A stretch of DNA of 43,668 nucleotides from Thermodesulfovibrionales bacterium (lineage in GTDB: Bacteria > Nitrospirota > Thermodesulfovibrionia > Thermodesulfovibrionales > SM23-35): positions 1-43,668 of the forward strand of contig JAGUWT010000284.1 in NCBI GenBank assembly GCA_020062205.1. Direction: 5' to 3'. The translations under genes were made by a program, and so were the position numbers. The notes beneath the pieces are model-generated. The model saw only the letters and a program-made list of their open reading frames with translations, had not been told where the DNA came from and did no database searches. This document shows, piece by piece, positions 2,477 to 42,067 of this stretch. Positions within the stretch are counted from its first letter, which is position 1, and the number at the start of each line of letters is the position of its first letter.

Positions 2477-3601
2477 ATGAGTAATTTAATAGAGTCAACA
2501 GAAGATATAAAGAGGTTCTATAAAGACAAGAGATGTCTGGTAACGGGTGGCTTTGGATTTGTCGGCAGCCACGTTGTTGAATCTCTTGTGAAAGCCGGTG
2601 CAGAAGTTCATGTCCTCGATATTGATACGGATGAGAATCGGGATTCATTAATTAACCTCTGCGGCTTAAGAGATAAGGTTCATATTATTACTGCTGACAT
2701 TACCGATAAAATTGCTATGGAAGAGATCATTCGACAGATTAAATGCGATATCATTTTCCATTTTGCTGCAGCAGCAACAGTCGTAGAAAAGGCAATGGAT
2801 CTGCCTTACTTAACTGTTTTGGCGAATACGATGGGACTTGTCAATATCTTAGAGGCAGTCAGGAAAATGAATAATTCAATCTATTCTGTTCTCTTCTCAT
2901 CTACTGACAAGGTATATGGAGAAGCATCGGAACTTCCCTATAAAGAGAATGCAACCCCTCTCAAGGCTGTAGGACTGTACGATTCAGCAAAAATGGCAGC
3001 AGATGTTCTTGCAAAATCATACGCTGAGGTTTTTAAAGTTAATGTTGTCATTGTAAGACTCTGTAATCTCTATGGTCCCTATGACTTCAATATTGACTAC
3101 AGGCTCATACCAAAGTCAATGAAGCACATTTATGGAGAGGGGAGGGCACCAGAACTCTATTTTCATTCTCTGGATCATTTCAGAGATTACTTATATATTG
3201 ACGATGCTGTCAGGGCCATGCTGCTCCTCGCTAAGGAAAAAAAATGTTTTGGAGAGATTTATAATATGCCCGGATGTAAGTATGCTTCAACTCCTGGCAT
3301 CCTGAAAGAAATAATAAATAGGGTAGCAGAGGTGGAAAGGAAACTTAATGGAGAAATCGGGGATCAGATAACGGCCAGAGGGATAAGGATAAAAATGGGC
3401 GACCCCCAACATATTGTCATTGAGAAACAGCATTTATGTGGTGAAAAGATAAAAGATTCTGTTGGCTTTGTTCCTGAGATCAGTTTTGAGGATGGCTTGG
3501 AAAGAACGATATTGTTTTATAGGGAATATTTTCAAAATCAAAAGAAGAGTATAGTAGTCAGTATACAGGAGACAGAAGGCAGAATGCAGGAGGCGGTATA
3601 A
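2477..3601 (+). CDS. NAD-dependent epimerase/dehydratase (extended SDR)
   Basis: RBS aggagg at 2465-2470. Rossmann motif VTGGFGFVGSHVV and catalytic YDSAK (YxxxK). The last ~10 codons (QETEGRMQE) are encoded by the 7-nt repeat arm of the downstream cassette. Confidence 0.85.
   Translation: MSNLIESTEDIKRFYKDKRCLVTGGFGFVGSHVVESLVKAGAEVHVLDIDTDENRDSLINLCGLRDKVHIITADITDKIAMEEIIRQIKCDIIFHFAAAATVVEKAMDLPYLTVLANTMGLVNILEAVRKMNNSIYSVLFSSTDKVYGEASELPYKENATPLKAVGLYDSAKMAADVLAKSYAEVFKVNVVIVRLCNLYGPYDFNIDYRLIPKSMKHIYGEGRAPELYFHSLDHFRDYLYIDDAVRAMLLLAKEKKCFGEIYNMPGCKYASTPGILKEIINRVAEVERKLNGEIGDQITARGIRIKMGDPQHIVIEKQHLCGEKIKDSVGFVPEISFEDGLERTILFYREYFQNQKKSIVVSIQETEGRMQEAV
3565..3592. repeat. left arm of four-helix-bundle cassette A: (NCAGRAG) x4, 7-nt tandem units
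   Basis: Units are acaggag acagaag gcagaat gcaggag. It is complementary to the right arm at 3971-3997 at 23 of 27 positions. Three of the four mismatches would be G-U pairs in RNA. Confidence 0.75.
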
Positions 3602-3961
3602 ATGAAGGCTAAGGTTTTTGAAGATCTTGGTGTTTGGCAGAAAAGCCACCGGTTTGTCCTTGACGTGTACAGGTTGACCCAGTCCTTCCCGAATTACGAA
3701 CGTTTCGGTTTAGTTTCTCAAATAAGACGTTCGGCTGTCTCCGTCCCAGCAAATATTGCCGAAGGCTTTAAGAAAAGAGGATTACCTGATAAGCTGCGGT
3801 ATTTCAATATATCACAAGGTTCATTGGAAGAAACGCGCTATTATCTGATCCTGGCTAACGATCTTGGATATGCTGACACAAAAAACCTAAAAGAGAATCT
3901 CGACGAAATTAGCCGCATGATAGACGGATACATGCAATCCATAAAGAATAGGCAAACGTAA
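3602..3961 (+). CDS. four-helix-bundle protein (23S rRNA intervening-sequence protein family)
   Basis: 119 aa. The ATG follows the upstream TAA directly. Hallmark residues: FEDLGVWQKSHRF..VYRLTQSFPNYERFGLVSQIRRSAVSVPANIAEGF..SQGSLEETRYYLILANDLGY. Confidence 0.9.
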   Translation: MKAKVFEDLGVWQKSHRFVLDVYRLTQSFPNYERFGLVSQIRRSAVSVPANIAEGFKKRGLPDKLRYFNISQGSLEETRYYLILANDLGYADTKNLKENLDEISRMIDGYMQSIKNRQT

Positions 3962-3962
3962 A

Positions 3963-3997
3963 TCTCCTGTCTTCTGTATTCTGTCTTCTGTCTCCTA
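3963..3997. repeat. right arm of cassette A: (TCTTCTG-like) x5, 7-nt tandem units
   Basis: Units are tctcctg tcttctg tattctg tcttctg tctccta. It is the reverse complement of the left arm. Confidence 0.75.
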
Positions 3998-4016
3998 ACC
4001 AAAAACGGAGGATAAT

Positions 4017-5012
4017 ATGCAAAACAACAATTCTTATTGGCACAAAAGACCCTGCCTGGTTACCGGCGGAGCAGGTTTTGGCGGGGCACACTTATGCGCT
4101 GAATTGTTATCAAGAGGCGCTAAGGTCTATGTCTACGACCGACATCTCCCTAAAGATTCCTACCTGGTGTTTGCAGGACTGGTTGACAGGGTAAATTTTA
4201 TACAGGGTGACATAAGGGATTTGGAATATTTGAAAATGATTAACACCCGATTTGAAATCACAAACATCTTCCATCTTGCTGCCCAGGCCATTAAGCCTCA
4301 GAGTAATCTAATCCCTTATGAAACCTTTGTAGTAAATGCTCAGGGAACCTATAATGTTCTGGAGACGGTTCGTACGGCAAAACAAAGCCCTCATCTCGTC
4401 TTTGCTTCGACAGGGGGCTATTACGGAACTTTTTTCTCAGAGGACTTGATTAATGAGGATTCCCCGCCTCTGGTGGGCGACAACGTTTACTCTGCCTCCA
4501 AAGTGGCTGGGGATATAGCTGTAAGATATTATGCCAATATCTTCGGAATAAAGGCTGCTACATGCCGGTTCATGCAGACCTACGGTCCTGGAGATACAAA
4601 TTTCAGTCGTATTATTCCCATAACCATTAAGTACCTTATGAATGGTCAGCATCCCAAACTAACCCGTTGTGATGGTACCCCTCAATGGGATTTCCTGCAT
4701 GTCAGGGATATGGCCAGAGCTTACACAGCCGTCGCCGAGAATCTGGACAAGAAAGAGGTTTCCGGACAGGCCTTTAATTTCGGCGGCGGGAACCCCATAT
4801 CAGTAAAGGAACTAGTTATGTTGATCAGCAAAGTCTTTACCGGTAAGGAAATTGAGCCAATCATACTTATACCACCTTCCGGTATTCTGCAAAAAACTTG
4901 TTTGGACATCTCAAAAGCAAAATCCTTACTGGGATGGAAACCCGGGATCAGCCTTGAAGATGGTCTTAAGGAGACTATTTCCTGGTATAGAGAAATCTGG
5001 GATCAACTATAA
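4017..5012 (+). CDS. NAD-dependent epimerase/dehydratase (extended SDR, sugar 4,6-dehydratase/epimerase-like)
   Basis: RBS ggagg at 4007-4011. Motifs VTGGAGFGGAHLC and catalytic YSASK. Confidence 0.8.
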   Translation: MQNNNSYWHKRPCLVTGGAGFGGAHLCAELLSRGAKVYVYDRHLPKDSYLVFAGLVDRVNFIQGDIRDLEYLKMINTRFEITNIFHLAAQAIKPQSNLIPYETFVVNAQGTYNVLETVRTAKQSPHLVFASTGGYYGTFFSEDLINEDSPPLVGDNVYSASKVAGDIAVRYYANIFGIKAATCRFMQTYGPGDTNFSRIIPITIKYLMNGQHPKLTRCDGTPQWDFLHVRDMARAYTAVAENLDKKEVSGQAFNFGGGNPISVKELVMLISKVFTGKEIEPIILIPPSGILQKTCLDISKAKSLLGWKPGISLEDGLKETISWYREIWDQL

Positions 5013-5041
5013 GAGGACGACAATTTTCTTTATAACTATTC

Positions 5042-5071
5042 AGCCACGAATTGACACAAATGGACACGAAT
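5042..5071. repeat. left arm of an empty cassette: 10-nt units agccacgaat tgacacaaat ggacacgaat
   Basis: Inverted with respect to 5187-5216. The first unit is perfectly complementary and the other two match at 7 of 10 positions. Confidence 0.7.
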
Positions 5072-5186
5072 AAAGACAAAATCCTATATCAAGATTTATC
5101 ATATAAAATTATCTATAGGAAAAACTTTGCGTTTCTTTGCGCTCTTTGCGGTGAACTATTAGCTTCATTAGAATTGATTCCGCCTT

Positions 5187-5216
5187 ATTTGTGTAAATTC
5201 GTGGCCATTCGTGGCT
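5187..5216. repeat. right arm of the empty cassette: atttgtgtaa attcgtggcc attcgtggct
   Basis: Reverse complement of the left arm family. The arms enclose a 115-nt loop (5072-5186) with no credible ORF. Confidence 0.7.
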
Positions 5217-5245
5217 AACTCCATAGGTTTGAGGAAATATGAAAT

Positions 5246-6232
5246 ATGTATCAGCTGAAAGATAAGGTTTGGTTGTCGGCCAACAGGATTTTCGCTGCTA
5301 TAGAAGCAAAGAAAAATATTTCAGATCGGTCCAGGGAAAAAGCGATTTCCTGGTTTCGCAGTGTGGTTATATCGGGTGCAGGTTTCCCGGTTAGTACGGG
5401 CCAAAATATATCATACCCGGAAGTTACCGGGTATATTATTCCAACTCTTTATGAGGTCGGGGAAAAAGATTTTGCAAGGGATTTGGCCCTATGGCTGATT
5501 TCTGTGCAACACCCTGACGGCGCCTTTTGCGCGCCAGACGGGATGCCCTACACTTTTGATACTGGTCAGGTTTTACGCGGCCTGTTGACGGTACTGGATG
5601 ACATGCCTCAAGCGAAAGAGTCTACTATAAAGGCCTGTGACTGGATTCTTACTCAGATTCAATCTGACGGAAGAATTACCACTCCATCGACTGATATGTG
5701 GCGCCTGCCTGAAGATAAGATGGTCAACGACAATATTCACCTGTATGTTTTGCCACCCCTCATGGAAGCGGGCAGGAGACTTGGGAAGTCCGAATATGTA
5801 GATGCTTCCCGTCATGCATTAACGTATTACAAGCAACGTCCTGATTTGATATCGTTCACGACACTATCCCATTTCTATGGATATGTTATGGAAGCGCTCT
5901 TTGATTTGGGAGAAACGGATCTGGCGAAACAAGGCATGAAAGAAGTAGCCGCATTGCAGAAATTCAATGGAAGCATACCTGCATATCCAGGCGTAGATTG
6001 GGTATGCACTCCCGGCGTCGCCCAACTGGCCATTGTATGGTACAAGCTGGGGATGAGCGACCGGGGGGATGCTGCTTTAAGATATCTGAAAGGAATCCAG
6101 AATGACAGTGGTGGTTTCTTTGGGAGTTATGGCAAAGGAGCCAACTATTTCCCTCGTGAAGAGCTTCCCTGGGCAGCAAAGTATTTCTTAGACGCCTGTC
6201 ATTGGTCTCAAACCTCTGCGCCTTTGCGGTGA
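5246..6232 (+). CDS. alpha/alpha-toroid-like protein (prenyltransferase / terpene-cyclase-type repeats), function unknown
   Basis: 328 aa with repeated Q/H-x-x-DG-x-F type segments: VQHPDGAF, IQSDGRI, LQKFNGSIP, IQNDSGGFFG. The last codons (SAPLR-stop) lie in the ctttgcggtgaac repeat. Confidence 0.45.
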   Translation: MYQLKDKVWLSANRIFAAIEAKKNISDRSREKAISWFRSVVISGAGFPVSTGQNISYPEVTGYIIPTLYEVGEKDFARDLALWLISVQHPDGAFCAPDGMPYTFDTGQVLRGLLTVLDDMPQAKESTIKACDWILTQIQSDGRITTPSTDMWRLPEDKMVNDNIHLYVLPPLMEAGRRLGKSEYVDASRHALTYYKQRPDLISFTTLSHFYGYVMEALFDLGETDLAKQGMKEVAALQKFNGSIPAYPGVDWVCTPGVAQLAIVWYKLGMSDRGDAALRYLKGIQNDSGGFFGSYGKGANYFPREELPWAAKYFLDACHWSQTSAPLR

Positions 6233-6251
6233 ACAGTTACGAGACTTCAAT

Positions 6252-7388
6252 ATGCGGATATCTATTTTCACATCTGATATTGATAAAACGGCATCGGAGG
6301 GGGTAACTGTATTAGATGGTGTAAATTCATCCAGCCATGCGCTTACCAATGATAGTCTTTATGTCACAGGCTATGGATGGCCAACTTTGAAATTAGACTC
6401 CAGGAGAGTCTATCCTCTTGAGCGCCGCCATAAATTGAGAACAAAGTTTTTTTGCAACCTCCTCAGCGCAATAGATAATAACAAGCGTATTCCTGCTTCG
6501 TTAGCACTCATTGCGGTTTATTTCATACAAAGAGAGATATTCGATACTTTGTTATCTTTTGTCCCTGATGCGTTGATCCTTTCCGGCCTACGTTGGAACA
6601 AGGAATTTAGATTTTTTATTAAAAGAAAAATGCCGGATCTTCCTTGCTATTGCAAGCATGATCGTATCGAATTACCGCCTGAAGGGCATTGGAAAAAATA
6701 TGACCCATCGGTGAAAGTCAGCATCGTTCTTCCAACATATAACGGAGCCAAGTATATCCGAAAATCAATCAATAGCTGCCTGGAACAAACCCATAGTAAT
6801 TTGGAATTAATTATAGTGGACGATTTTTCAACCGATGAAACACCTCAAATTATTAACTCCTATTCAGATAAACGGATAAAATACATTAGGCATCCCACAA
6901 ATCTCAAGCTCCCCCGAGCCTTGAATACAGGCTTTAAGCACGCTACGGGTGAGTATCTAACCTGGACATCAGATGATAATTTTTATGATGTAAATGCCAT
7001 AGAAACAATGCTCAAATTTCTATTAACATATCCGCAAATAGACTATGTGTATACGGATGAATACCATATTGATGAAAATGACAATATAAATAAATACTTT
7101 GCCGTAGGACCGGTTGAAAGTTTGCAATTAGACAACTTGATCGGGGGATGTTTTCTGTATCACAGAAGGGTCTACGAGGAGATAGGAGAATATGACCCGG
7201 ATACTTATCTGGCCGAAGATTATGACTATTGGATTCGCATATCCAAACGGTTTCGTATGCAAAGATTGCGCATACCTCTTTACTATTACCGCCTTCACAA
7301 AGACTCGCTTACCGTAAAATATGGGAAATACGGGACGAAGCTTGCCGGAGAAGTTGGGGATATTGTCAAAAAGAGGCATAAGAAATGA
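6252..7388 (+). CDS. family 2 glycosyltransferase with a ~150-aa N-terminal extension
   Basis: GT-A motifs VSIVLPTYNGAKYIRKSINSCLEQT, LELIIVDDFSTDET, WTSDDN and AEDYDYWIR. The start is uncertain; an internal ATG at about 6630 is possible. Confidence 0.8.
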   Translation: MRISIFTSDIDKTASEGVTVLDGVNSSSHALTNDSLYVTGYGWPTLKLDSRRVYPLERRHKLRTKFFCNLLSAIDNNKRIPASLALIAVYFIQREIFDTLLSFVPDALILSGLRWNKEFRFFIKRKMPDLPCYCKHDRIELPPEGHWKKYDPSVKVSIVLPTYNGAKYIRKSINSCLEQTHSNLELIIVDDFSTDETPQIINSYSDKRIKYIRHPTNLKLPRALNTGFKHATGEYLTWTSDDNFYDVNAIETMLKFLLTYPQIDYVYTDEYHIDENDNINKYFAVGPVESLQLDNLIGGCFLYHRRVYEEIGEYDPDTYLAEDYDYWIRISKRFRMQRLRIPLYYYRLHKDSLTVKYGKYGTKLAGEVGDIVKKRHKK

Positions 7389-9502: not shown

Positions 9503-10279
9503 ATGAGAATTTTAATATTGATGTATCACATGATATCGAGGACGAACATAAAAATGGAAAAGAGGTATGCCCTTGTTCCCGAGAGATTCAGGCAGCAGTT
9601 AAGGTATCTTAAATGGAGAGGGTATGCACCGATTAGCCTTGACGATTTACACAACTATTTTATTAATAAGACTATTAGCCTTCCTGATAAACCAGTAATC
9701 ATAACCTTTGACGACGGATATATGGATAACTACGAAAATGCCTTACCGATCCTGAAAGAACAGAATGTCCCGGCTACCCTCTTCATAGTCAGTGGGCTTA
9801 TCAATAAAACGAACCGATGGATAATAAGCGAAGGATATCCAGAAAGACCGCTAATGGGATGGACCGAAATTCGAGAAATGCAGAAGAATGGTATGACGAT
9901 CGGTTCCCATACTGTAAATCATTGCCGTTTAACTACCTTAGATCTTAAAGATGCAAAACGGGAGATCGAGGATTCAAAGAAATTCCTCGAAGATAGCCTC
10001 GGTACTCAGATCAACCATTTTGCTTATCCCTATGGTGATATGAAGGATTCTATTATGAATATGACAAGAGATGCAGGATACAGGACAGCCTGTTCTACGA
10101 GGTCCGGGTTTAATTCAGAACAAGTAAGTCCCTATGAATTAAGGAGGCTTGAGATTTATGGTACAGATACCCTTTGGAAATTTGCATTAAAACTAACCTA
10201 TGGGACAAACGATGGCAACTTACTCCTTCCTGCAAGATACTACATGAAAAGAATGGCTGAGAGACTTAATCGTTATTAG
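9503..10279 (+). CDS. polysaccharide deacetylase (CE4 / NodB homology domain)
   Basis: Motifs ILMYHMI, ITFDDGYMDNYENALPILKE, ATLFIV, IGSHTVNHCRL and FAYPYGD. The stop lies inside the GTTATT repeat arm. Confidence 0.9.
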   Translation: MRILILMYHMISRTNIKMEKRYALVPERFRQQLRYLKWRGYAPISLDDLHNYFINKTISLPDKPVIITFDDGYMDNYENALPILKEQNVPATLFIVSGLINKTNRWIISEGYPERPLMGWTEIREMQKNGMTIGSHTVNHCRLTTLDLKDAKREIEDSKKFLEDSLGTQINHFAYPYGDMKDSIMNMTRDAGYRTACSTRSGFNSEQVSPYELRRLEIYGTDTLWKFALKLTYGTNDGNLLLPARYYMKRMAERLNRY

Positions 10280-10309
10280 GTTATTACGTTATTAAGTTAC
10301 TTTGTTATT
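10271..10309. repeat. left arm of four-helix-bundle cassette B: (GTTATTNN) x5, 8-nt tandem units
   Basis: Sequence is cgttatta ggttatta cgttatta agttactt tgttatt. The segment gttattacgttatt (10280-10293) is perfectly complementary to aataacgtaataac (10713-10726). Confidence 0.75.
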
Positions 10310-10702
10310 ATGGCTATCATCAGGACATTTGAAGATTTGGATGTATACAAGCTTGCAAGAGAATTTCGAAAGAACATATACAAAATGGTAAAGATTCTAC
10401 CGGAAGAGGAAAAATATAATCTATCTTCACAAATGCGCCGTGCGGCCTTATCTGTTACAAATAACATTGCCGAAGGATTTGGATGCTATCATTATCAAGA
10501 AAATATACAATTTTGCAGACAATCAAGAGGTTCAATCAATGAGTTGATAGATGATCTTAATACATGTATAGATGAGAATTACATTTCAAGAGATGTCTAT
10601 CATGATATAAAAGAAGAAGCTTATAGATTACTAAAAGTATTAAATTCTTATATAGCCAGCCTACAAAGACAAAAATTACGCAATAACGCAATAACTCAAT
10701 AA
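10310..10702 (+). CDS. four-helix-bundle protein (23S rRNA intervening-sequence protein family)
   Basis: 130 aa. Hallmark residues: FEDLDVYKLAREFRKNIYKMVKILPEEEKYNLSSQMRRAALSVTNNIAEGFG..SRGSINELIDDL. The C-terminal LRNNAITQ-stop is encoded by the repeat arm. Confidence 0.9.
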   Translation: MAIIRTFEDLDVYKLAREFRKNIYKMVKILPEEEKYNLSSQMRRAALSVTNNIAEGFGCYHYQENIQFCRQSRGSINELIDDLNTCIDENYISRDVYHDIKEEAYRLLKVLNSYIASLQRQKLRNNAITQ

Positions 10703-10750
10703 TGTGATAACCAATAACGTAATAACTTAGTAACCCAATAACGCAATAAT
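10674..10750. repeat. right arm of cassette B: (AATAACNN) x~9, 8-nt tandem units
   Basis: Sequence is ttacgc aataacgc aataactc aataatgtg ataacc aataacgt aataactt agtaaccc aataacgc aataatt. It is in inverted orientation relative to 10271-10309. Confidence 0.75.
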
Positions 10751-10757
10751 TAATTCA

Positions 10758-11654
10758 TTGGACATAAGCGTAATAATCTGCACATACAATCGAAGCAATC
10801 ATCTCAGGAATGTCTTAAGAAGTCTTTCTGAACAGGTTGTCCCCAATAATCTGGAATGGGAAATTGTTGTAGTTGATAATAATTCAACCGATGATACCAT
10901 TGAAGTTGTGAAAGACTTTGGTAATGATTCAAGCCTTCCAATAAAGTATATAAAAGAAGAAAAGCAGGGTCTTTCTCATGCTCGTAATAGAGGTATTTTA
11001 GAGTCAAAAGGTAAGTATGTAGCCTTCACCGATGATGATGCTATCACAGATCGGAACTGGGTAACATCATTGTATGAGGCATTTCAGAAATACGGATGTG
11101 ATTGTGTTGGGGGGCGTATATATCTGAGGTTTGCAAGCGAGATGCCTCGATGGTTAAAAAGAGAGTTATGGGGATTTTTCGGCTTTTTGGATCATGGTCA
11201 CAGGGCATTTGAGGTGATTGACGAGCATATTTTTGGCGGGAATATGGCATTTTCAAAAGAGATCCTAAATAAGTCTGGTTTTTTCAACCCGAACCGCGGT
11301 CGAACCGCAACTGTATTAATAGGTGGAGAGGAGTTGGAGTTACTAAAAAGAGTAAAAAGTGCAGGAGGCAAGATAATATATCAACCAGCAGCCTTAGTTT
11401 ATCACGTTATAGGTTCTGAAAAACTTAAGAAGCAGTATTTCAGAAAACTGCATTATTACGAAGGAGTAATATCTGGAAAATCTTTTAGTGAGCCAATTAG
11501 GCGGCATATTACTGGGATACCGCTATTTATTTTTTCACAGTTCATAAGAAGTGTGATGAACTATTTTCGAAACCCTGCCCTAAGAATGCAGATGAATATT
11601 TGGTGGTTTTTAGGGTTTATGAGGGGAAGAATGGCCCAATTCAGAAAGAGCTGA
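10758..11654 (+). CDS. family 2 glycosyltransferase
   Basis: TTG start. Motifs ISVIICTYNRSNHL, VVVDNNSTDDT and FTDDDA. Confidence 0.85.
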   Translation: MDISVIICTYNRSNHLRNVLRSLSEQVVPNNLEWEIVVVDNNSTDDTIEVVKDFGNDSSLPIKYIKEEKQGLSHARNRGILESKGKYVAFTDDDAITDRNWVTSLYEAFQKYGCDCVGGRIYLRFASEMPRWLKRELWGFFGFLDHGHRAFEVIDEHIFGGNMAFSKEILNKSGFFNPNRGRTATVLIGGEELELLKRVKSAGGKIIYQPAALVYHVIGSEKLKKQYFRKLHYYEGVISGKSFSEPIRRHITGIPLFIFSQFIRSVMNYFRNPALRMQMNIWWFLGFMRGRMAQFRKS

Positions 11655-11665
11655 AGCACTGTGAC

Positions 11666-12403
11666 ATGAAGAACAGGCGGGAAAAGATAAAGGTTGCCAT
11701 TCTGACGAGCCCTTCCTTCCGGAGCCCAAGGGTGTTGGCTGAGGGTTTGCAACGGATGCTTTCGAGGGTAGGTATCGAAAGCCATATTTTTTACGAAGGT
11801 ATTCCGCTCATTTATGCGCCAACTAATTGGAGGGGAAGAAATTTTGTTAAAAACGCTTTAACCACCATTAGATACAGGTATGAAATACATTCGCTTAAGT
11901 CCTATAATCTGACAAAAAAAGAGGAATTTATAGCCTTGATAGATTTTGAGCGGAAAAGCTATGAAGAGTATAGGAGGGTCCAGTTAGAAGCCCTGTCAGA
12001 ACTCGGTATTAAGACCGTGGTCTTAGATTCCGATTACACCTTCTCCGAAATAGCCGAAGTCTACAGAAAATGCAGCATCTATTTTTTGGCTTTTTATGAA
12101 GCTTTTGGCGTTCCAATAGCTGAACTGCAGGCCTGTGGTGCTTGTATATTTTCCCCATCCCCGGCATGGCCAATGGCCCATAGGTTAGACGCACGTTGCC
12201 CAGATGCGTCAGCGTGGAAGTTGTCTGAAAACTTTATTATATATGACTCGAAAGCCGATTTAATAAATAAGATGAAAGAAATACGAGAAAACTACAATCC
12301 CTATCAAGTGTTCGACAATTTTGTCAAGAACTATCCGCATTTTTACGAAGGGGATACGGCCGCTCTAAGTGAAATAATTCATAAACTCTCTTCAAAATTC
12401 TGA
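11666..12403 (+). CDS. hypothetical protein with a GT-B-like C-terminal motif
   Basis: The likely start is ATG 11666 (MKNRREKIKVAILTS). The listed start at 11600 overlaps the previous gene. YEAFGVPIAELQACGACIF resembles the E-x7-E region of GT4 enzymes, but the protein is short and divergent. Confidence 0.4.
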   Translation: MKNRREKIKVAILTSPSFRSPRVLAEGLQRMLSRVGIESHIFYEGIPLIYAPTNWRGRNFVKNALTTIRYRYEIHSLKSYNLTKKEEFIALIDFERKSYEEYRRVQLEALSELGIKTVVLDSDYTFSEIAEVYRKCSIYFLAFYEAFGVPIAELQACGACIFSPSPAWPMAHRLDARCPDASAWKLSENFIIYDSKADLINKMKEIRENYNPYQVFDNFVKNYPHFYEGDTAALSEIIHKLSSKF

Positions 12404-13509: not shown

Positions 13510-14061
13510 ATGGCACCGACTGTTACAGAAAAGAAAAAATATACCTACGAAGATTACCTTAAAACCCCTGAGGACGAGATATATGAACTCATAGAAGGAG
13601 AATTGCTTATGACACCATCGCCTATACCAAAGCATCAAAGGATTTCAAGGGAGCTTGAATTCGAAATATTAAAATTTGTTAAGGCGAATGACCTTGGAGA
13701 AGTCTTTTATGCACCGTGTGATGTATATCTTGATGATGAGAATGTTATACAGCCTGATATACTGTTTATCTCAAAAGAGAGGTTGAATATTATAGGTGAA
13801 AAGAACATACAGGGCGCACCAGACCTTGTGGTAGAGATAATCTCAGAGAACACTGCCTACAGGGACCTTGTGCAAAAAAAGAAATTATACGCAAGATTTG
13901 GTGTAAAGGAATACTGGATAGTAATTCCAAAGGAAGAATTAATAGAGGTTTATATTTTAAAGGATAACACCTACATGCTTTATAAGACCTATAGTAAGGA
14001 TGACACCCTTGAATCACCCTATCTGAAGGACTTGAAGATAGGATTAAAAAGTATATTCTAA
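13510..14061 (+). CDS. Uma2 family endonuclease (DUF820, restriction-endonuclease-like fold)
   Basis: Motifs YTYEDYLKTPEDEIYELIEGELLMTPSP, KHQRIS, IQPDILFISKERL, GAPDLVVEIIS and FGVKEYWIV. Confidence 0.9.
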   Translation: MAPTVTEKKKYTYEDYLKTPEDEIYELIEGELLMTPSPIPKHQRISRELEFEILKFVKANDLGEVFYAPCDVYLDDENVIQPDILFISKERLNIIGEKNIQGAPDLVVEIISENTAYRDLVQKKKLYARFGVKEYWIVIPKEELIEVYILKDNTYMLYKTYSKDDTLESPYLKDLKIGLKSIF

Positions 14062-14127
14062 ACCATCCTGAACTTAATAACTTAGTAACTTGATACTAAG
14101 AAGTTCATAAGTAATACCACATAATTG

Positions 14128-14212
14128 GTCATTCGCGCTTGTCGGGAATCTTTCTTCAAGAAGGATGCCGGACTTCGACGTGAGCTCAGTCGAACGACAA
14201 GCCGGCATGACA
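14128..14212. repeat. palindromic intergenic element (TGTCATT...AATGACA family), copy 2
   Basis: It starts gtcattcgcgcttgtcgggaatctttctt and shares gcttgtcgggaatc(c/t)ttctt with copy 1. It ends caagccggcatgaca. Internal hairpin: ttcgac-gtgagctca-gtcgaa. Confidence 0.65.
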
Positions 14213-14332
14213 GAAGAAAAAGAGTCATGTGACCTTACTCATGGTCTCATTAGTAACTCGATAACTCAATTACTTAGTTTAGGGATGAGAATGAGAAGAG
14301 GTTATGGGTTTCAAGTTATGAGTATAGGTTAT

Positions 14333-14359
14333 TTGAATAGATGGAATTTGTGATATAAT
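14333..14359 (+). promoter_or_regulatory. possible extended -10 promoter for the UPF0175 gene
   Basis: TGaTATAAT at 14351-14359, with TTGAAT at 14333-14338. The spacer is only 15 nt. Confidence 0.3.
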
Positions 14360-14404
14360 AGTCAAATTAGAATTTTTGAAATTTTGAAACTTAGGAGCAA
14401 GATT

Positions 14405-14701
14405 ATGAATATACTAGAAAAGGAAGCTAAGGCACTTATAAAAAGGGGTATATATAAAGATGAAAAATCACTTTTTGAAGATGCCCTTAGAGCATTACTT
14501 GTATCTAAGCCTGGCCTGAGAGTGGAAGCTGCCATAGAGCTTTATAAAGCAAAAGAAATATCTCTTAAGAAGGCAGCAGAAATTGCATCTCTTGATATAG
14601 AGTCCTTCAAAGACGAGTTGTCAAGGAGGGGATTAAAAATAGAATTAGAACCCCCTTCCAAGGACATTCTGGATAAAGGGGTGTCTTTGCTCCTCAAATG
14701 A
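14405..14701 (+). CDS. UPF0175-family antitoxin-like protein
   Basis: RBS aggag, then ATG 14405. The C-terminal AIELYKAKEISLKKAAEIASLDIESFKDELSRRGL matches the UPF0175 helix-turn-helix signature. No partner toxin ORF follows. Confidence 0.7.
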   Translation: MNILEKEAKALIKRGIYKDEKSLFEDALRALLVSKPGLRVEAAIELYKAKEISLKKAAEIASLDIESFKDELSRRGLKIELEPPSKDILDKGVSLLLK

Positions 14702-23900: not shown

Positions 23901-23937
23901 ATTACAATAACCCAATAACTAAATTACTTAGTAACTC
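23901..23937. repeat. AATAAC/AGTAAC-type short tandem array upstream of cysC
   Basis: Sequence is attacaataacccaataactaaattacttagtaactc. Confidence 0.6.
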
Positions 23938-29030: not shown

Positions 29031-30242
29031 ATGAAGATCCTCCATATCCTCGACCATTATAAGCCCCACTTCAGTGGGTATGTCTTCAGGACAAGTTATA
29101 TCCTGAGATATCAAAAGGAGTTGGGCCTTGAGCCAATAGTGGTTACCTCACCAAAGCATGGTAATGCAGAGAAATCCCTCGAAGAGATTGACAATATAAA
29201 AATCTACAGGGCACCAGCCAATAATTTTGGGGGAATTCCATTCCTGAAAGAGGCACGATTAATGAAAGTACTTCGGGACAGGATTGTAGAAGCTGTCAGG
29301 AGAGAAAAACCTGATATCATCCATGCTCATTCACCAAGCCTCAATGGCATACCAGCATTGAGGGTAGGGAGGAAGTACAGTATACCTGTTGTCTATGAAA
29401 TAAGGGCTTTCTGGGAAGACGCTGCTGTTGACCATGGGACTTTCCGTGAAGGCTCTCTTCGATACAAGTGGAGCAGATTCATAGAGACAGAATTATTGAA
29501 AAGGGTTGATGCGGTATTCACAATATGTAGGAGTCTCAAGAAGGAGATAGTAGCAAGAGGTATAGAGGATAATAAAGTTACAATAATACCAAACTGTGTC
29601 GATGGAGGATATTTTTCACCCACAGCATATGATAAGGAGATAGCTGATAGATATGGCTTGGTTGATAAGATTGTCTTTGGTTTTATTGGTTCATTCTACC
29701 ACTATGAAGGGATAGATCTCTTGATAGATAGCTATAGAAATACTCTGAAAAAAAATAGAGATACACGGTTGCTCCTGGTCGGTGATGGACCTGAAAGAGT
29801 TGCACTTTATAAAAAGGCAGAAGAAAATGGGTTACTCGGCCATGTTATTTTTACCGGAAAGGTTCCCCATGAGGATGTAAAGAGATACTACTCAGTGATA
29901 GATTTCCTTATTTATCCAAGAAAGAGCATAAGACTTACTGAGCTCGTGACCCCTTTAAAACCCCTTGAGGCTATGGCAATGGGGAAGATTGTTGTTGGCA
30001 GTGATGTCGGTGGGATTAGAGAGTTGATAACACCTGATAAAGATGGACTACTGTTTAGAGCAGGAGATGCTGATGAACTTTCAAGATTGTTGATTGATCT
30101 GGCGCTGAATAATAAAGACCTTAAAAGAATCTCAATGACAGCAAGAGAGACAGTAGAGCATCAGCATAAATGGGAATCGGCTGTCAAAAAATACCTACCG
30201 ATATATGAGCATTTGATAAAAAAATTAAAAAATAACCAATAA
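29031..30242 (+). CDS. glycosyltransferase family 4, of the type found next to exosortase-locus AsnB genes
   Basis: ATG 29031 (MKILHILDHYKPHFSGYVFRT). The listed start at 28977 overlaps the VanZ-like gene. Motifs TELVTPLKPLEAMAMGKIVVGSDVGGIRELI. The C-terminal KNNQ-stop lies in an AATAAC array. Confidence 0.85.
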   Translation: MKILHILDHYKPHFSGYVFRTSYILRYQKELGLEPIVVTSPKHGNAEKSLEEIDNIKIYRAPANNFGGIPFLKEARLMKVLRDRIVEAVRREKPDIIHAHSPSLNGIPALRVGRKYSIPVVYEIRAFWEDAAVDHGTFREGSLRYKWSRFIETELLKRVDAVFTICRSLKKEIVARGIEDNKVTIIPNCVDGGYFSPTAYDKEIADRYGLVDKIVFGFIGSFYHYEGIDLLIDSYRNTLKKNRDTRLLLVGDGPERVALYKKAEENGLLGHVIFTGKVPHEDVKRYYSVIDFLIYPRKSIRLTELVTPLKPLEAMAMGKIVVGSDVGGIRELITPDKDGLLFRAGDADELSRLLIDLALNNKDLKRISMTARETVEHQHKWESAVKKYLPIYEHLIKKLKNNQ

Positions 30243-30269
30243 ACTAATAACTCAATAATTTTCTAAACC

Positions 30270-32602: not shown

Positions 32603-35600
32603 TTGAAAAGGGAACACGAAGCATCACGCACCCGTATAGAAAAAGTACTATCGAAAATCTGGGCTGAAGTCCTCGGTCTTGAGCGAATCCACGTTGAGGA
32701 TAATTTTTTTGAGTTAGGTGGTGATTCTATCAATGTCCTTCAGGTGATCGCTATAGCCAATCGTGAAGGCTTACAATTTACTCCGAAACAGTTTTTTCAA
32801 CATCCTACCATTGCTGAGCTAGCTACCGTAACGGTTCCACTTTCAACTTCATGTGCAGAACAGGGTATCGTCAAAGGCAGGATACCACTAACTCCTATTC
32901 AGCACTGGTTTTTTGAACAGGGAGTCCCAGAACCAGAGCAATGGACACAGTCTATATTGCTTGAAGTGCATCACCCTCTTAAAGTTTCTATATTGCAAGA
33001 AGCCATTCGACACTTGCTTGTTCATCACGATGCACTGCGTGTGCGCTTTACCCCAGGGGAGCTGGGTTGGGAACAGTTTTGCGTTGGTAACGAAGAATTA
33101 GTACCGTTTAACAGGTTAGATTTGTCAGGACTTTCAGGTGGAGAGTTAAAACATGTCATTGAGGCTGAAGCAGCAAAATTGCGTGCTGGTTTAAACATAT
33201 CAAAGGGACCACTTATGCAAGTAGCCCTCTTTGACCTTGGCACTTCCCAACCGAATCGACTACTTATAGTCATTCATCATTTAGTAGCGGACGGTGTTTC
33301 ATGGCGGATCTTGCTGGGGGATCTCCAGACAGCCTATATGCAACTCAGCCGTGGTGAATTAATAAAACTGCCTGCCAAGACGACCTCGTTAAAGCAGTGG
33401 GCAGAACGACTTGAGGCATATGCACAATCAATAGAGCTGCGACATGAGATGAAATACTGGCTTGCACAGCCATGGAGTCAAGCAGGATGTTTACCTGTGG
33501 ACTTTCCAGATGGTGACAATACCGAGGCTTTGGCTTGGGCTGTGTCGGTTTCGCTCACTGCTGAAGAGACAAAGGCTATTTTACAGGAGATTCCCAAGGT
33601 ATACCATGTCCGTGTCAACGATATCTTGATCACGGCGCTGGTGCAGGCCTTTGCACCATGGATCGGAAAGGATTGTCTTCTCATAGATCTAGAAGGTCAC
33701 GGTCGGGAGGCTATTTTCGATGATGTGGATCTGTCTCGGACGGTGGGGTGGTTTACCTCAATTTTTCCTGTGCTGCTGGATCTTAAGAATGCGTCAGGAC
33801 TCAGGAGTACCATGAAGTTGACACAGGAACAAATGAATCATATTCCGCATAAAGGTATTGACTATGGCATACTGCGCTACCTCAGCAGTGCTGAAAATGC
33901 TCGTCGACTTCAAAGTCTGCCTCAGGCCGAGGTTAGTTTTAACTACTTTGGACAATTCGATCAACTATTTTCAGGCACATCTATGTTTAAGCCAGCCTCT
34001 GAAACTATTACTCCTGTACAGTTAAAGGGTCTATTGCAAGAGTCATATGGGTTAAAGGGAACACGGAGGCATTTAATAGATATTAGTGGAAGCGTATTTA
34101 ATGGCAAGCTTTGGTTTAACTGGACGTATAGCAAGAACGTTCATCGCGAAACGACAATCCGTTACCTTGCTGAAGACTACGTGGCTGCACTCCGCTCGAT
34201 TATTAATAGCTATCAGTCTACCGAGGCCGAGTCTTACAAACCTTTCAACTCTCGGGGGACCTTCTTATGCAATGAAGAGTTTGATGCTAAAAATAAACAG
34301 CTCATTGAAGGCAGCGCTACAGGTGATAAGAGTTTGGAAAATGTTGAGGCTATTTTCCCGCTTTCCGCCATGCAGCGGGGGCTTTTATTTCACAGTCTTC
34401 AGAATCCCGAGTTGGGTATCTACATCGTGCAGGATTGTTACATGCTTTATGGTGACTTAAACATGCCGGCATTTAGGGAGGCTTGGATGCATGTATCAAA
34501 GCGACATACCGCCCTGCGGACTGTATTTATCCCAAAAGGGCACAAACAGCCACTTCAGGCCATTCACAAGGTAGTAAATTTATTAATCGAAGAACATGAT
34601 TGGCCTGATCTGGGAGCAACCGATCAGAAAGAGCAAATAGAGTCTTTCCTCAAGATGGACCGCGAAAAGGGCTTCGACCTTACAAAGAGTCCACCACTGC
34701 GTCTTGCCATAATCCGATTAACCAAAGACGTCTATCAATTTATTTTAAGTTTCCATCACGCATTACTTGATGCTTGGTCTGTGTCTTTACTAATCAGGGA
34801 AGTTTTTGACTTCTATCAGGCACTCTGTTATGGGAGTGAGTACAAAATGGATTCAAACCATCCCTATATGGATTATATTACATGGCTTCATCAGCAGGAT
34901 CTGTCCCAGGCTGAGGGTTTCTGGCGGCAGATACTGAAAGGGTTTACAGCACCGACACCTTTAGGAATGATTGCAGAGCGTAATGGTTTATCATGCCATG
35001 TTGATGGTTTTAGTGAAGGAGAAATTAAGTTATCTGCAGCCACTACGGCAGCGTTGCAGTCCTTTGCACAGCGTCATCATCTCACTCTTAATACCCTGAT
35101 TCAGGGTTCGTGGGCCCTGTTGCTAAGTCACTATAGTGGTGAGAAGGAAGTAGTCTTTGGGGTCGTTGTGTCTGGTCGTCCACCTGCTCTGGAAGGAGTC
35201 GAGTCCATGGTAGGACTATTTATCAATACCTTACCAGCACGGGTACAGATACATGACAAGGAGACACTATTTCTTTGGTTGAAGAAGCTTCAAAACCAGC
35301 AAGTTGAGATGAGACAGTATGAATATAGTCCTTTGGTAAAGGTAAAAGAGTGGAGTGAAATTCCAAGCGGTGTTCCTCTGTTCGAGAGTATATTGCTTTT
35401 CCAGAATTACCCGGTGGACGATATGTTAGTAGCGAGGCATGGAAACTTAAAGATAGAGAATGTACGAACAGTGGAAAGGACTAATTATCCACTTACCCTG
35501 GTAGCAATACCAGGTTCAGAATTAATATTGCGGCTCATGTACCATACCCCTCGTTTTAATGCTTCTACCATTGCCCAGATGCTTGACCATTTACAAACCT

Positions 35601-36472
35601 TGCTGGAGGGCATGCTTGCCAATCCACAGGCGCGACTTTCAGACATCCCGTTGTTAACCGCAGCACAACAGCGCCAACTCCTTGTTGAATGGAATAATAC
35701 CAAAACGGACTACCCCAGGGATGCAACTATCCCTGAACTGTTTGAGGCACAGGTAGAACAGACACCCGACACCGTAGCAGTTATATTTGGAGACCATCGA
35801 CTTACTTATCGGGATTTGAATCAGAGAGCAAACCAGCTATCGCACTACCTGAGGTACTTAGACGTTTCACCGGAAGTGCGGGTTGCTATTTGTATGGAAC
35901 GCTCCCTGGAAATGGTAATAGGACTTTTAGGCATACTCAAAGCAGGTGGTGCATACGTGCCTCTTGACCCCTTGTACCCTAAAGAAAGGCTATCGTTCAT
36001 GCTGGCAGATGCTCAGGTGCCAGTGTTGTTGACCCAAAAGCAGCTGATTCAGAGATTGCCAAAGCATATGGCTAGGGTAGTGTGTCTTGATGAAGAGTGG
36101 GGACATATAGCAGGAGAAAGCGACCAAAATCCACCCAGGAGAACTAAGGCGGAAAACCTAGCCTGTATAATTTATACTTCAGGTTCAACCGGCAAGCCAA
36201 AAGGAGTGGAAGTTCTCCACCGTGGTATTGTTCGTTTATTATTCGGCACGGATTACGTCAAGCTTGATGCGACACAGAGATTTTTGCATATGTCTGCAAT
36301 CACCTTTGATGCTTCTACCTTTGAGATTTGGGGAGCATTGCTTCATGGTGCCCAATGTGTTCTCTTGCCGGGAAGAATACCTAGTTTAGAAGAAATAGGC
36401 ATGGCGATACAAAAATATGGCATTACCACCCTCTGGTTAACAGCTGCACTATTCAACGTGATATATAGATGA
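32603..36472 (+). CDS. non-ribosomal peptide synthetase, N-terminal part (T-E-C and A-domain cores A1-A4), interrupted by a frameshift
   Basis: TTG start 11 nt after ggag. T domain: FFELGGDS (Ser codon 32726-32728). E domain: PIQHWFF, HHLVADGVSW (33275), LEGHGRE, RTVGWFTSIFP, FNYFGQ. C domain: SAMQRGLLF, HHALLDAWS (34754). A domain: LTYRDLN, LKAGGAYVPLDP, IIYTSGSTGKPKG (36173), FDAS. It ends at TGA 36470-36472 in the middle of the A domain. Confidence 0.9.
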   Translation: MKREHEASRTRIEKVLSKIWAEVLGLERIHVEDNFFELGGDSINVLQVIAIANREGLQFTPKQFFQHPTIAELATVTVPLSTSCAEQGIVKGRIPLTPIQHWFFEQGVPEPEQWTQSILLEVHHPLKVSILQEAIRHLLVHHDALRVRFTPGELGWEQFCVGNEELVPFNRLDLSGLSGGELKHVIEAEAAKLRAGLNISKGPLMQVALFDLGTSQPNRLLIVIHHLVADGVSWRILLGDLQTAYMQLSRGELIKLPAKTTSLKQWAERLEAYAQSIELRHEMKYWLAQPWSQAGCLPVDFPDGDNTEALAWAVSVSLTAEETKAILQEIPKVYHVRVNDILITALVQAFAPWIGKDCLLIDLEGHGREAIFDDVDLSRTVGWFTSIFPVLLDLKNASGLRSTMKLTQEQMNHIPHKGIDYGILRYLSSAENARRLQSLPQAEVSFNYFGQFDQLFSGTSMFKPASETITPVQLKGLLQESYGLKGTRRHLIDISGSVFNGKLWFNWTYSKNVHRETTIRYLAEDYVAALRSIINSYQSTEAESYKPFNSRGTFLCNEEFDAKNKQLIEGSATGDKSLENVEAIFPLSAMQRGLLFHSLQNPELGIYIVQDCYMLYGDLNMPAFREAWMHVSKRHTALRTVFIPKGHKQPLQAIHKVVNLLIEEHDWPDLGATDQKEQIESFLKMDREKGFDLTKSPPLRLAIIRLTKDVYQFILSFHHALLDAWSVSLLIREVFDFYQALCYGSEYKMDSNHPYMDYITWLHQQDLSQAEGFWRQILKGFTAPTPLGMIAERNGLSCHVDGFSEGEIKLSAATTAALQSFAQRHHLTLNTLIQGSWALLLSHYSGEKEVVFGVVVSGRPPALEGVESMVGLFINTLPARVQIHDKETLFLWLKKLQNQQVEMRQYEYSPLVKVKEWSEIPSGVPLFESILLFQNYPVDDMLVARHGNLKIENVRTVERTNYPLTLVAIPGSELILRLMYHTPRFNASTIAQMLDHLQTLLEGMLANPQARLSDIPLLTAAQQRQLLVEWNNTKTDYPRDATIPELFEAQVEQTPDTVAVIFGDHRLTYRDLNQRANQLSHYLRYLDVSPEVRVAICMERSLEMVIGLLGILKAGGAYVPLDPLYPKERLSFMLADAQVPVLLTQKQLIQRLPKHMARVVCLDEEWGHIAGESDQNPPRRTKAENLACIIYTSGSTGKPKGVEVLHRGIVRLLFGTDYVKLDATQRFLHMSAITFDASTFEIWGALLHGAQCVLLPGRIPSLEEIGMAIQKYGITTLWLTAALFNVIYR
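32624..32827 (+). other. NRPS domain: carrier (T/PCP) domain 1
   Basis: IWAEVLGLERIHVEDNFFELGGDSINVLQV. Confidence 0.85.
32882..34207 (+). other. NRPS domain: epimerisation (E) domain
   Basis: All seven E-type cores were recognised by eye: PIQxWF, HHxxxDGVSW, DILITA, EGHGRE, RTVGWFT, GIDYG and FNYxGQ. Confidence 0.8.
34343..35647 (+). other. NRPS domain: condensation (C) domain, presumably DCL type because it follows E
   Basis: Motifs LSAMQRGLLFH, RHTALRTVF, HHALLDAWS, GLFINTLP and NYPLTLVA. Confidence 0.8.
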
Positions 36473-37211
36473 GGCACCACGGATATTAGATGGCATCCGG
36501 CAGTTGCTTGTTGGTGGAGATGCGCTTTCAGTTTCGCATGTTCTCAAAGCCCTTGAGGTTTTACACACCATACAGATCATCAACGGCTATGGTCCCACTG
36601 AGGGCACGACATTTACCTGTTGTTATACTATTCCTCGTCAACTTGATAAAACCGCGCTATCAATCCCTATAGGGCGTCCCATTTCCAATACACAAGTCTA
36701 CCTGCTTAATTCATATCTGCAGCCGGTGCCCGTTGGGGTTCCAGGTGAAATTTACATTGGAGGAGATGGTCTTGCCCGAGGCTATCTCAATCAGCCCGAA
36801 TTAACAGCCGAAAAGTTTATCCCCAATCTGTTCAATGATGACCCGGGTGCACACCTGTACAAGACAGGGGATCTGGCACGTTACCTGCCAGACGGTAATA
36901 TTGAGTTCATCGGTCGTCTTGACCATCAGGTGAAGATCCGTGGCTTCCGGATCGAGCTGGGAGAGATTGAGTCAGTGTTAGGACAACATCCCGCTGTTCG
37001 TCAAGTAGCGGTAATTACCCGTGAAGATGTACCCGGCAGCAAAAGCCTAGTAGCCTACATTGTCCCTGTTCGCGAAGGAGTTATCTCGGCACGGGAGATG
37101 AGGCATTTCTTGAAAGAAAAGCTACCAGACTATATGATTCCCTCTGCTTTTGTATTTTTGGAAGCTTTGCCGTTAACGCCGAATAACAAAATAAACCGCA
37201 AAGAGTTACCA
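35720..37211 (+). other. NRPS domain: adenylation (A) domain, spanning the frameshift at about 36461-36469
   Basis: Cores A1-A10 are present across the two frames. The hand-derived specificity code is D A F W L G G T F K. Confidence 0.8.
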
Positions 37212-41842: not shown

Positions 41843-41864
41843 ACAGCATAAAACTTGATATACC

Positions 41865-41999
41865 TGTCATTGCGAGCACCCGAAGGGTGCGTGGCAATCT
41901 CATCGAAAACAACGAGATTGCGGAGCTTGTTCCGAACGAAGTGAGGAATCCTGCTCCGGTTTGCTTCGGCTTCGCCTCGCAACTTCACTCGCAATGACA
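41865..41999. repeat. palindromic intergenic element (TGTCATT...AATGACA family), copy 3, 135 nt
   Basis: The termini tgtcattgcgag and ctcgcaatgaca are perfect reverse complements. Internal hairpins: gcaccc-gaa-gggtgc and gcaatctc (41893-41900) / gagattgc (41913-41920). Confidence 0.75.
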
Positions 42000-42067
42000 A
42001 GTTTTATCGCTGGATTTAAAATATGAATAACGTAGTTAATAAAGAGATGTGCCAGGAGAATATATAA

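Follow-up and report, generated by a model that had tools for sequence, protein, structure and literature searches.

In Coxiella burnetii, the gene for 23S ribosomal RNA (rRNA) carries in helix 45 an intervening sequence (IVS) of 428 nt with an S23p open reading frame (ORF); three GACAGAT heptamers, whose copy number varies between strains, stand right upstream of its ATG, and the inverted repeats at its termini make up a 28-bp stem that RNase III cuts where the first repeat begins (Warrier et al. 2016, PMC4990558). The same paper, which names the IVS of Leptospira alongside, describes the Coxiella ORF as decaying and probably untranslated. Here we describe an element of the same anatomy, cassette B, between two genes of an exopolysaccharide cluster in a Thermodesulfovibrionales bacterium (contig JAGUWT010000284.1; its 43,668 nt are the window referred to throughout). 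We classify cassette B by its anatomy as an IVS-type cassette in an mRNA operon, and we hold that classification with much greater confidence than the mechanism we attach to it, in which the two arms would pair, loop out the ORF and create an RNase III site; to that mechanism we give about even credence.

Two further groups of described elements are relevant. The first consists of intergenic heptamer repeats, among which the STRR repeats of cyanobacteria were reportedly described by Mazel et al. in 1990. Heptamers of TAACTGA type lie just before start codons in Beggiatoaceae, Cyanobacteria and Bacteroidetes, and an unidentified binding protein was proposed for them (MacGregor 2015, PMC4679880); in Xanthomonas, 70–75 convergent pairs of GGGAATC arrays are able to form stem-loops, with function given as unknown (Rehm et al. 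2015, PMC4692102). The passages of these two papers used here do not link the arrays to an enclosed gene or to the protein family PF05635. The second group comprises relatives of S23p outside rRNA: 23S_rRNA_IVP genes are inserted within cas operons (Zhang et al. 2013, PMC3936711), and Avd of diversity-generating retroelements (DGRs) is an RNA-binding pentamer; in the RNA on which it acts, an upstream and a downstream segment pair and leave the template between them looped out (bioRxiv 10.1101/2023.10.23.563531). In the literature that we searched, coverage of which was incomplete, we did not find a general link between PF05635 and tandem arrays, or repeat units specific to protein clades.

Cassette B and the host genes on either side of it comprise the following features.

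9503..10279, + strand: polysaccharide deacetylase (PF01522), upstream host gene
10271..10310, + strand: 5' arm of cassette B, G/T-rich, about 5 tandem GTTATTNN units, holding the deacetylase stop and ending at the gene B ATG
10310..10702, + strand: gene B, a 130-aa four-helix-bundle protein of the 23S rRNA-intervening-sequence protein/S23p/Avd-like family
10674..10749, + strand: 3' arm of cassette B, C/A-rich and G-poor, about 9.6 AATAACNN units in two blocks
10758..11654, + strand: family 2 glycosyltransferase (GT2; PF00535), downstream host gene

A sequence-only reading of this DNA had seen five units upstream, overlapping the deacetylase stop, and about nine downstream, overlapping the end of gene B, and Tandem Repeats Finder agrees, with 4.9 copies of period 8 at 10272–10310 and 9.6 copies of period 8 (73% matches) at 10674–10749. 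The 5' units read GTTATTAG, GTTATTAC, GTTATTAA, GTTACTTT and GTTATT(ATG), so that the final unit abuts the start codon. The first of them contains the deacetylase stop TAG (10277–10279) together with the last two codons of that gene, and the C-termini of deacetylase orthologs diverge exactly at the array start. At the other end, the first block of the 3' arm codes for the last codons and stop of gene B; because the array begins 29 nt before the end of the stop codon, the protein's tail (...RNNAITQ*) is repeat-encoded. The same array terminates 8 nt ahead of the GT2 start. The two arrays are indeed inverted relative to each other, as that reading held: 10280–10293 (GTTATTACGTTATT) is the exact reverse complement of 10713–10726 over 14 nt, and longer inverted pairs between the arms cover 37 nt with 78% complementarity, 29 nt with 86% and 22 nt with 91%. 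The three-unit pattern GTTATTNNGTTATTNNGTTATT, allowed up to three mismatches, has 13 matches in the window against 0.12 expected, with as many in 0 of 100 shuffles; in cassette B, three lie on the plus strand, upstream of gene B only, and six on the minus strand in the 3' arm.

Protein B belongs firmly to its family, matching PF05635 at E = 4.7e-32 (110.8 bits; cut-off 33.8) and TIGR02436, 'four helix bundle protein', at E = 4e-29 (101 bits; cut-off 24). Its sole solved relative by sequence is XCC0516 (PDB 2GSC; E = 5e-12 over residues 5–95), whose solved structure PMC4990558, citing Lin et al., gives as a homopentamer. The protein is under strong purifying selection: the ratio of nonsynonymous to synonymous change (dN/dS) is 0.05–0.06 against homologs 80–85% identical, with synonymous sites saturated (dS 1.5–1.9). 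A scan in and around the cassette found no promoter- or terminator-like sites, so cassette B is neither an independent transcription unit nor a terminator. The window is one exopolysaccharide cluster with all genes on the plus strand, and among its ORFs, those of the cassette included, there is no transposase, integrase or reverse transcriptase.

A sister cassette, A, lies closer to the start of the same window.

3566..3597, + strand: 5' arm of cassette A, made of CAGGAGA/CAGAAGG/CAGAATG-type heptamers, which the ORF of the upstream epimerase reads through
3602..3961, + strand: gene A, a 119-aa four-helix-bundle protein (PF05635, E = 1.1e-37)
3963..3997, + strand: 3' arm of cassette A, heptamers of TCTTCTG/TATTCTG/TCTCCTG type

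Protein A scores 128.9 bits against PF05635 and 126.8 bits against TIGR02436, weakly matches the Avd profiles NF033474 and PF22296, and is 29% identical to protein B. The claim that the two cassettes share an architecture built from different units holds well beyond the window: a promoterless PF05635 gene between a 5' array and a reverse-complement 3' array is conserved over about 155 loci in many phyla.

Set beside the 23S IVS, both cassettes have a PF05635 protein, complementary termini that are predicted to form a stem, and the ORF in the loop. Cassette A also has upstream heptamers like those of Coxiella, where GACAGAT corresponds to the CAGRA unit type of the A clade. Unlike the Coxiella IVS, cassette B has 8-nt units (GTTATTNN) and arrays that form the whole of both arms, and unlike the Coxiella ORF its gene is strongly conserved. 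The largest difference is one of place: the known IVSs sit in helix 9, 25 or 45 of 23S rRNA, whereas our cassettes sit among protein-coding operon genes, and neither the window nor the surroundings of 20 A-clade loci gave an rRNA match in Rfam at gathering thresholds. We therefore reject membership among 23S IVSs proper. The likeness to heptamer repeats is also partial. Those are 7-nt (here 7–8-nt) intergenic tandem arrays, often near start codons and sometimes in inverted pairs, and they occur in phyla rich in PF05635 genes; unlike them, the present arrays bracket a PF05635 gene, their unit follows the clade of that gene, and the B unit has 8 nt.

The anatomy of cassette B is general. We assessed about 155 homologous loci, namely 83 B-clade cassettes and 72 A-clade loci. 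A profile of B relatives, searched against one genome per species, gave 80 loci at 48–67% identity from Nitrospirota, Deltaproteobacteria, Planctomycetota, Verrucomicrobiota, Bacteroidota, Chlorobi, Omnitrophota, Ignavibacteriae, Elusimicrobia and others; protein A, used to scan metagenomes, gave 80 loci at 55–71% identity. Nearly every B-clade locus has an upstream 7–8-nt tandem array and a complementary downstream array, in unit pairs that vary from locus to locus (GGTTAATT/AATTAACC, GGTGAGT/ACTCACC, CGTGAAT/ATTCACG, GGAAAAT/ATTTTCC and more). The inverted-arm alignment score in the B clade has a median of 33, compared with 16 for shuffles, and exceeds the 95th percentile of shuffles in 87% of the 83 cassettes, as against 31% with a partner arm borrowed from a different locus and 14% in direct comparison. 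The same threshold is exceeded in 63% of the 72 A-clade loci. Arms have a median size of 4.7 units, or about 34 nt, on each side, with periods 7 and 8 dominating. The downstream array begins within the ORF in 69 of 132 cases, which accounts for the variable, repeat-encoded C-terminal tails of the family (NNSITQ, KSTKST, QSTQST).

Orientation is as regular as anatomy. Two same-strand ORFs flank 64 of 86 cassettes and only three are antiparallel to both neighbors; the ATG lies a median of 54 nt from the upstream stop. The 5' arm is G-rich (G>C) in 64 of 69 cassettes, and the same order appears in hairpins that enclose no gene, made of a G-rich array, a short loop and a complementary C-rich array: 24 such hairpins occur in the fetched loci, and when they are oriented by the local cassette, 16 have the G arm first and one the C arm. 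This fixed polarity, shared by cassettes and gene-less hairpins, ties the design to the direction of transcription.

These regularities bear on the plainest alternative, that replication slippage produced the arrays and the gene lies between two of them by chance. Intergenic DNA of several phyla holds more heptamer arrays than expected (PMC4692102; PMC4679880), and arrays of AATAAC type do stand at gene-less junctions of our window. Yet a cassette's own arm outscores arms from other loci, 216 of 307 strong period-7/8 arrays (70%) in 756 kb adjoin one of 174 four-helix-bundle ORFs identified by profile hidden Markov model, polarity is fixed, units are clade-specific, and cassette A came with both its arms to an array-free junction. 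Because the pattern recurs in most homologous loci, the bracketing is not coincidental; pure coincidence is effectively excluded, and we consider this account highly improbable.

The arms are also predicted to pair; failure to do so in thermodynamic folding, which the sequence-only reading had named as grounds for refutation, is not what we see. For cassette B, the duplex energy is -38.1 kcal/mol compared with -19.2 +/- 3.6 in shuffles (z = -5.2), the minimum free energy (MFE) structure of the 497-nt stretch brings the arms together as its closing stem, and a base of the upstream arm pairs with the downstream arm with a mean probability of 0.66, compared with 0.21 in shuffles. Cassette A has a 30-bp closing stem in its MFE structure (z = -5.2) and a pairing probability of 0.995. 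Across 81 cassettes, the duplex energy is -41.8 kcal/mol, as against -30.6 when the arms are shuffled and -28.9 when partners are swapped (p ~1e-10 or lower), and the median stem has 31 aligned columns, 87% of them Watson-Crick. Since the arrays are tandem, the arms can pair in several registers. Complementarity persists where arms have diverged: in three Nitrospirae that share one junction, the pairs are AGTAATT/AATTACT and GGTAATT/AATTACC, and the orthologous insertions between sdhA and sdhB in at least nine Verrucomicrobia have arms that differ yet remain complementary.

The sdhA/sdhB insertions have features of their own. They were seen in L049, L052, L055, L056, L057, L063, L066, L067 and L073 (at about 3000–3450 in each), encode a longer protein (150–165 aa) whose tail passes through the 3' array, and in several loci are accompanied by a gene-less hairpin of related unit after sdhB. 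In L053 (2770–2990 and 3363–3470) and L081 (680–760), a whole G-array/C-array hairpin replaces the single arm on one or both sides of the gene, which indicates that the arrays rearrange readily.

We favor a role at the RNA level because the cassettes are co-oriented with their neighbors, their polarity is fixed, their arms lie at stop and start codons and the Coxiella IVS provides a precedent; cassette B shares the anatomy of 23S IVSs and probably works as they do. In the mechanism that we propose for cassette B, a promoterless, terminator-less S23p/Avd-like gene, wedged co-directionally between two exopolysaccharide-operon genes, would be carried on the operon's read-through transcript, in which the arrays would pair in a flexible register (the best B pairing being 37 nt). 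The long stem would loop the 390-nt ORF out of the polycistronic RNA and bring the end of the upstream cistron beside the start of the downstream one. By analogy with ORF-bearing 23S IVSs, such a stem would most likely be an RNase III substrate, and cleavage would free the cassette RNA and separate the flanking cistrons, with a possible effect on their expression. Arm, gene and arm together have the behavior of a discrete insertion that travels from one gene junction to another and across phyla.

Several observations weigh against this mechanism. The full-length B fold beats its shuffles only modestly (z = -2.2) and has a stem rich in A-U pairs. Mismatches compatible with G-U pairing are not in excess on the sense strand (61, against 67 in antisense), so selection for pairing at the RNA level lacks positive support. 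The lengths of the 5' and 3' arms are uncorrelated (rho 0.12). Variable unit positions are weakly complementary, at 44% in the trained register compared with 33% when shifted (p = 0.008, cross-validated), and much of the complementarity is simply what a core motif common to both arms, but inverted between them, entails: for the most part the arms repeat a single core that faces opposite ways, and they are not exact mirror copies. No Rfam family matches in the window or in the 20 A-clade loci, and C-type arrays stand alone at other junctions, including an empty orthologous site. The lack of G-U bias, the conserved core with its weak complementarity and the solo C-type arrays together mean that pairing is not the whole story.

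What else matters is suggested by the unit itself. The sequence-only reading had asked whether unit type co-varies with the phylogeny of the enclosed protein, and it does: sharing of arm 6-mers declines with protein distance (Mantel r = 0.36, p = 0.001), A-clade arms have period 7 and CAGRA/TYCTG type in 47 of 48 loci, units in the B clade have 8 or 7 nt and belong to the GGTTAATT/GTTATT/GGTGAGT kind, and unit types cross over between clades in 0 of 72 and 1 of 83 loci. The arms of B homologs keep a 6-nt GTWAYT core, with 1–2 free positions, despite saturated synonymous sites. Because unit type follows protein clade, the arms are not purely structural, and the suggestion that shared architecture with different arms reflects a structural requirement rather than a sequence-specific site is not supported in that form. 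The core is conserved and also occurs unpaired, polarity is fixed and the variable positions are weakly complementary; sequence and strand therefore matter besides complementarity.

The unpaired occurrences are the arrays without the gene, of which the window contains the following.

14071–14095: additional C-type array
14252..14335, + strand: C-type array (TAGTAACTCGATAACTCAATTACTTAG), then a G-type array (GGTTATGGGTTTCAAGTTATGAGTATAGGTTATT) whose units are of the same family, gene-less
23906..23937, + strand: solo AATAACNN-type array before the APS kinase gene, with no four-helix-bundle gene and no inverted partner
30231..30259, + strand: solo AATAAC-type array that spans the stop of a family 4 glycosyltransferase gene and ends about 10 nt before the asparagine synthase start

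The array at 23906–23937 starts 69 nt and ends about 40 nt ahead of the APS kinase start codon. The AATAAC-type arrays that the three-unit pattern matches at 23906–23935, 30238–30259 and 14252–14273, with neither gene nor partner, are all oriented as the 3' arm is, on the coding strand and upstream of the next genes, and in the fetched loci solo G-poor arrays end 2–20 nt before a start codon. The sequence-only reading had named AATAAC arrays that are equally frequent at gene-less junctions, with no inverted partner, as a sign that the bracketing is accidental. This holds in part: such arrays are present, and the 3' type is not confined to the gene, but the 5' G-type array and the matched pair are specific to it. 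Solo C-type arrays must therefore have a role or an origin for which no partner is required. In arrays that lie over 150 nt away from every four-helix-bundle gene, 0.38 of the 6-mers are shared with the cassette of the same locus, compared with 0.115 for other loci, and 44 of 86 distant arrays match the unit type of the same locus, compared with 8.6 expected.

This behavior would fit a reading in which the arrays are primarily binding sites, in RNA or single-stranded DNA, for the encoded protein as a ring-shaped pentamer or for another repeat-binding factor, in the manner of TRAP on GAG repeats. Each clade would then have its own unit, the complementarity of the arms would be secondary, and solo arrays would be further targets of a small post-transcriptional regulon. 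The conserved core, the strict clade specificity of the unit and the shared units of distant arrays all speak for such binding. So do the number of units per arm (about 4.7) beside the pentameric state reported for the relatives XCC0516 and Avd (PMC4990558, there at second hand; bioRxiv 10.1101/2023.10.23.563531), the position of solo C-type arrays, which end at most about 40 nt and in some cases a few nt before a start codon, as do the TAACTGA repeats in MacGregor's account (PMC4679880), the RNA binding of Avd and the barely complementary variable positions. However, joint inheritance of gene and arms explains the covariation of clade and unit equally well, Avd in the DGR structure touches RNA backbone and stem-loops with no reading of bases (bioRxiv 10.1101/2023.10.23.563531), the unit of cassette A does not recur elsewhere in the window, and binding does not explain why the two arrays face opposite ways or why the inverted-partner signal is strong. 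We regard such binding as the main rival to our mechanism, though an improbable one.

Related loci with empty junctions show how the cassettes came to be where they are. At the junction that holds cassette A, L169 and L170 (downstream epimerase 76% identical) have host genes that overlap by 14 nt and no arrays. In the window, homology of the upstream gene ends at ...YFQN, and everything beyond is additional: its last 20 codons, the arms, gene A and a new Shine-Dalgarno sequence for the downstream gene. Cassette A is thus a discrete insertion, about 460 nt long, and both arms came with it; we saw no convincing target-site duplication there. At the junction of cassette B, L164 (deacetylase 80% identical) has a 27-nt spacer, TATAATAACTCAATAACGATTATAAAA, with a short solo AATAAC array and neither a four-helix-bundle gene nor a G arm. 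In L166, the deacetylase is followed by GT2 after a 6-nt spacer and the gene is absent. Occupancy of this junction elsewhere rests on L165, in which the deacetylase leads into a G-type array and the contig ends at an ATG. The closest homologs of protein B (85, 80 and 71% identical; the closest, P0002, is known from a 1.1-kb contig) occupy another junction, wzm|wzt, with the unit type of B, and two of these wzm|wzt homologs are arranged as G arm, C arm, gene, C arm.

Such mobility raises a third alternative, in which the arms act at the DNA level as ends of a mobile cassette, whether as an attC-like hairpin or cruciform or as portable homology that leads into existing arrays, and their complementarity is maintained by quasi-palindrome template switching rather than by selection on RNA. 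The symmetric mismatch spectrum without G-U bias would follow from this, as would discrete insertion beside empty orthologous sites, the same cassette type at different junctions, and proteins more than 50–65% identical across Nitrospirota, Planctomycetota, Verrucomicrobiota, Bacteroidota, Omnitrophota and others; the variants with a G arm and a C arm ahead of the gene resemble recombination within arrays, and empty B sites retain a few C-type units. Yet no enzyme of the kinds sought lies in the window, no convincing target-site duplication accompanies the insertion, and from clade to clade the arms do not amount to a conserved recognition sequence. A fixed order of G arm at the 5' side and C arm at the 3' side, which extends to gene-less hairpins, is unexpected of a pure DNA palindrome, and the 64:3 co-orientation fits less well, though expression of a promoterless gene alone could explain it. 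We think this account rather unlikely on the whole; neither it nor binding by a repeat-specific factor is mutually exclusive with pairing and processing of the transcript.

Comparison with other known systems sets further bounds. Protein B shares with Avd a homologous four-helix bundle, and the cassette shares with the DGR RNA the pairing of segments around a looped-out region, there observed and here predicted. A phage avd gene has no tandem arrays and no inverted arms (inverted-repeat score 14), and a DGR is ruled out at this locus, as the window lacks a reverse transcriptase, a template repeat and a variable repeat. Integron cassettes are likewise promoterless co-directional ORFs, with an attC site recognised by its folded structure; unlike attC, a single imperfect palindrome after the ORF, our cassettes have two flanking arms of tandem 7–8-mers and lie scattered in ordinary operons. 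With no integrase or attI in 43.7 kb and arms on both sides of the ORF, an integron cassette is ruled out. So is a miniature inverted-repeat transposable element (MITE), given a selected protein, arms that are tandem arrays and no clear duplication at A, and so is CRISPR, whose defining parts are missing. The early mRNA of phage T7 is processed by RNase III at intercistronic hairpins. Our gene-less G-array/C-array hairpins resemble these as long stems between cistrons. The stems of the present design, predicted from sequence, differ in being built of tandem repeats and in that they can carry a 400-nt coding loop.

Other repeats in and beyond the window deserve mention. A solo CTTTTCA array (4.3 copies, 831–860) stands directly before the start of a pyruvyl transferase gene (862); its unit is unlike those of A and B, and it has no complementary partner nearby. 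At 13510–14701, genes for a Uma2-family endonuclease and an antitoxin-like UPF0175 protein interrupt the polysaccharide cluster, and the 322-nt spacer between them (14061–14384) holds C-type arrays, a MITE-like element that sits between them, and the C-array/G-array pair. Intergenic MITE-like inverted-repeat elements, with termini TGTCATTCC...GGAATGACA, lie at 2224–2322, 14128–14211 and 41862–42002. A CTTTGCG-type motif (CTTTGCGTTTCTTTGCGCTCTTTGCGGTGAAC), of a family separate from the cassette arms, occurs in two spacers (5125–5150 and 6208–6232) and in L168 (940–1226) upstream of the orthologous epimerase. In L001, from an uncultured bacterium, six C-rich 8-nt arrays of the AATAACC/CAATTACC family extend over about 2.7 kb downstream of a cassette (3673–6328) with gaps of about 50–900 nt, and their unit type matches the arms of that cassette.

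Two observations concern the gene models of the window. The GT2 gene (10758–11654) and the next ORF (11600–12403; 267 aa, no Pfam match) overlap by 55 nt as listed, and the TTG start of the latter is probably mis-set. A non-ribosomal peptide synthetase adenylation domain is split over 32603–36472 and 36504–38243, with positions 1–270 and 291–384 of the AMP-binding profile on either side of a 31-nt gap, which may reflect a frameshift, a pseudogene or an error in sequencing.

The cassettes matter chiefly for what they connect. PF05635/TIGR02436 is among the most widespread bacterial families without a known function, with 6,769 relatives from one search, and intergenic heptamer repeats have stood unexplained since about 1990; three findings join the literatures on rRNA IVS elements, on those repeats and on S23p genes in cas loci. 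The gene nearly always lies within a matched and oriented pair of such arrays, unit type goes with protein clade, and the classical 23S IVS with its ORF is one special case of a far commoner cassette that resides in ordinary operons, among them polysaccharide, sdhAB and cas operons. For annotation, it means that arrays supply stop codons and C-terminal tails to both host and cassette genes and can mimic CRISPR-like repeats. Cassettes A and B provide two orthogonal pairs of protein and unit in one genome. A broader proposal, unlikely but worth stating, is that PF05635 proteins are the trans-acting partners of intergenic heptamer and octamer repeats at large (STRR-like, TAACTGA and GGGAATC), each forming a clade-specific ring multimer, with a gene that travels between its own sites. 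If so, solo arrays and gene-less hairpins would be the targets of a mobile module of post-transcriptional control. In a variant of this proposal, the cassettes would be non-autonomous retroelements that call in a reverse transcriptase in trans through their paired flanks and Avd-like protein, in the manner of DGR RNAs.

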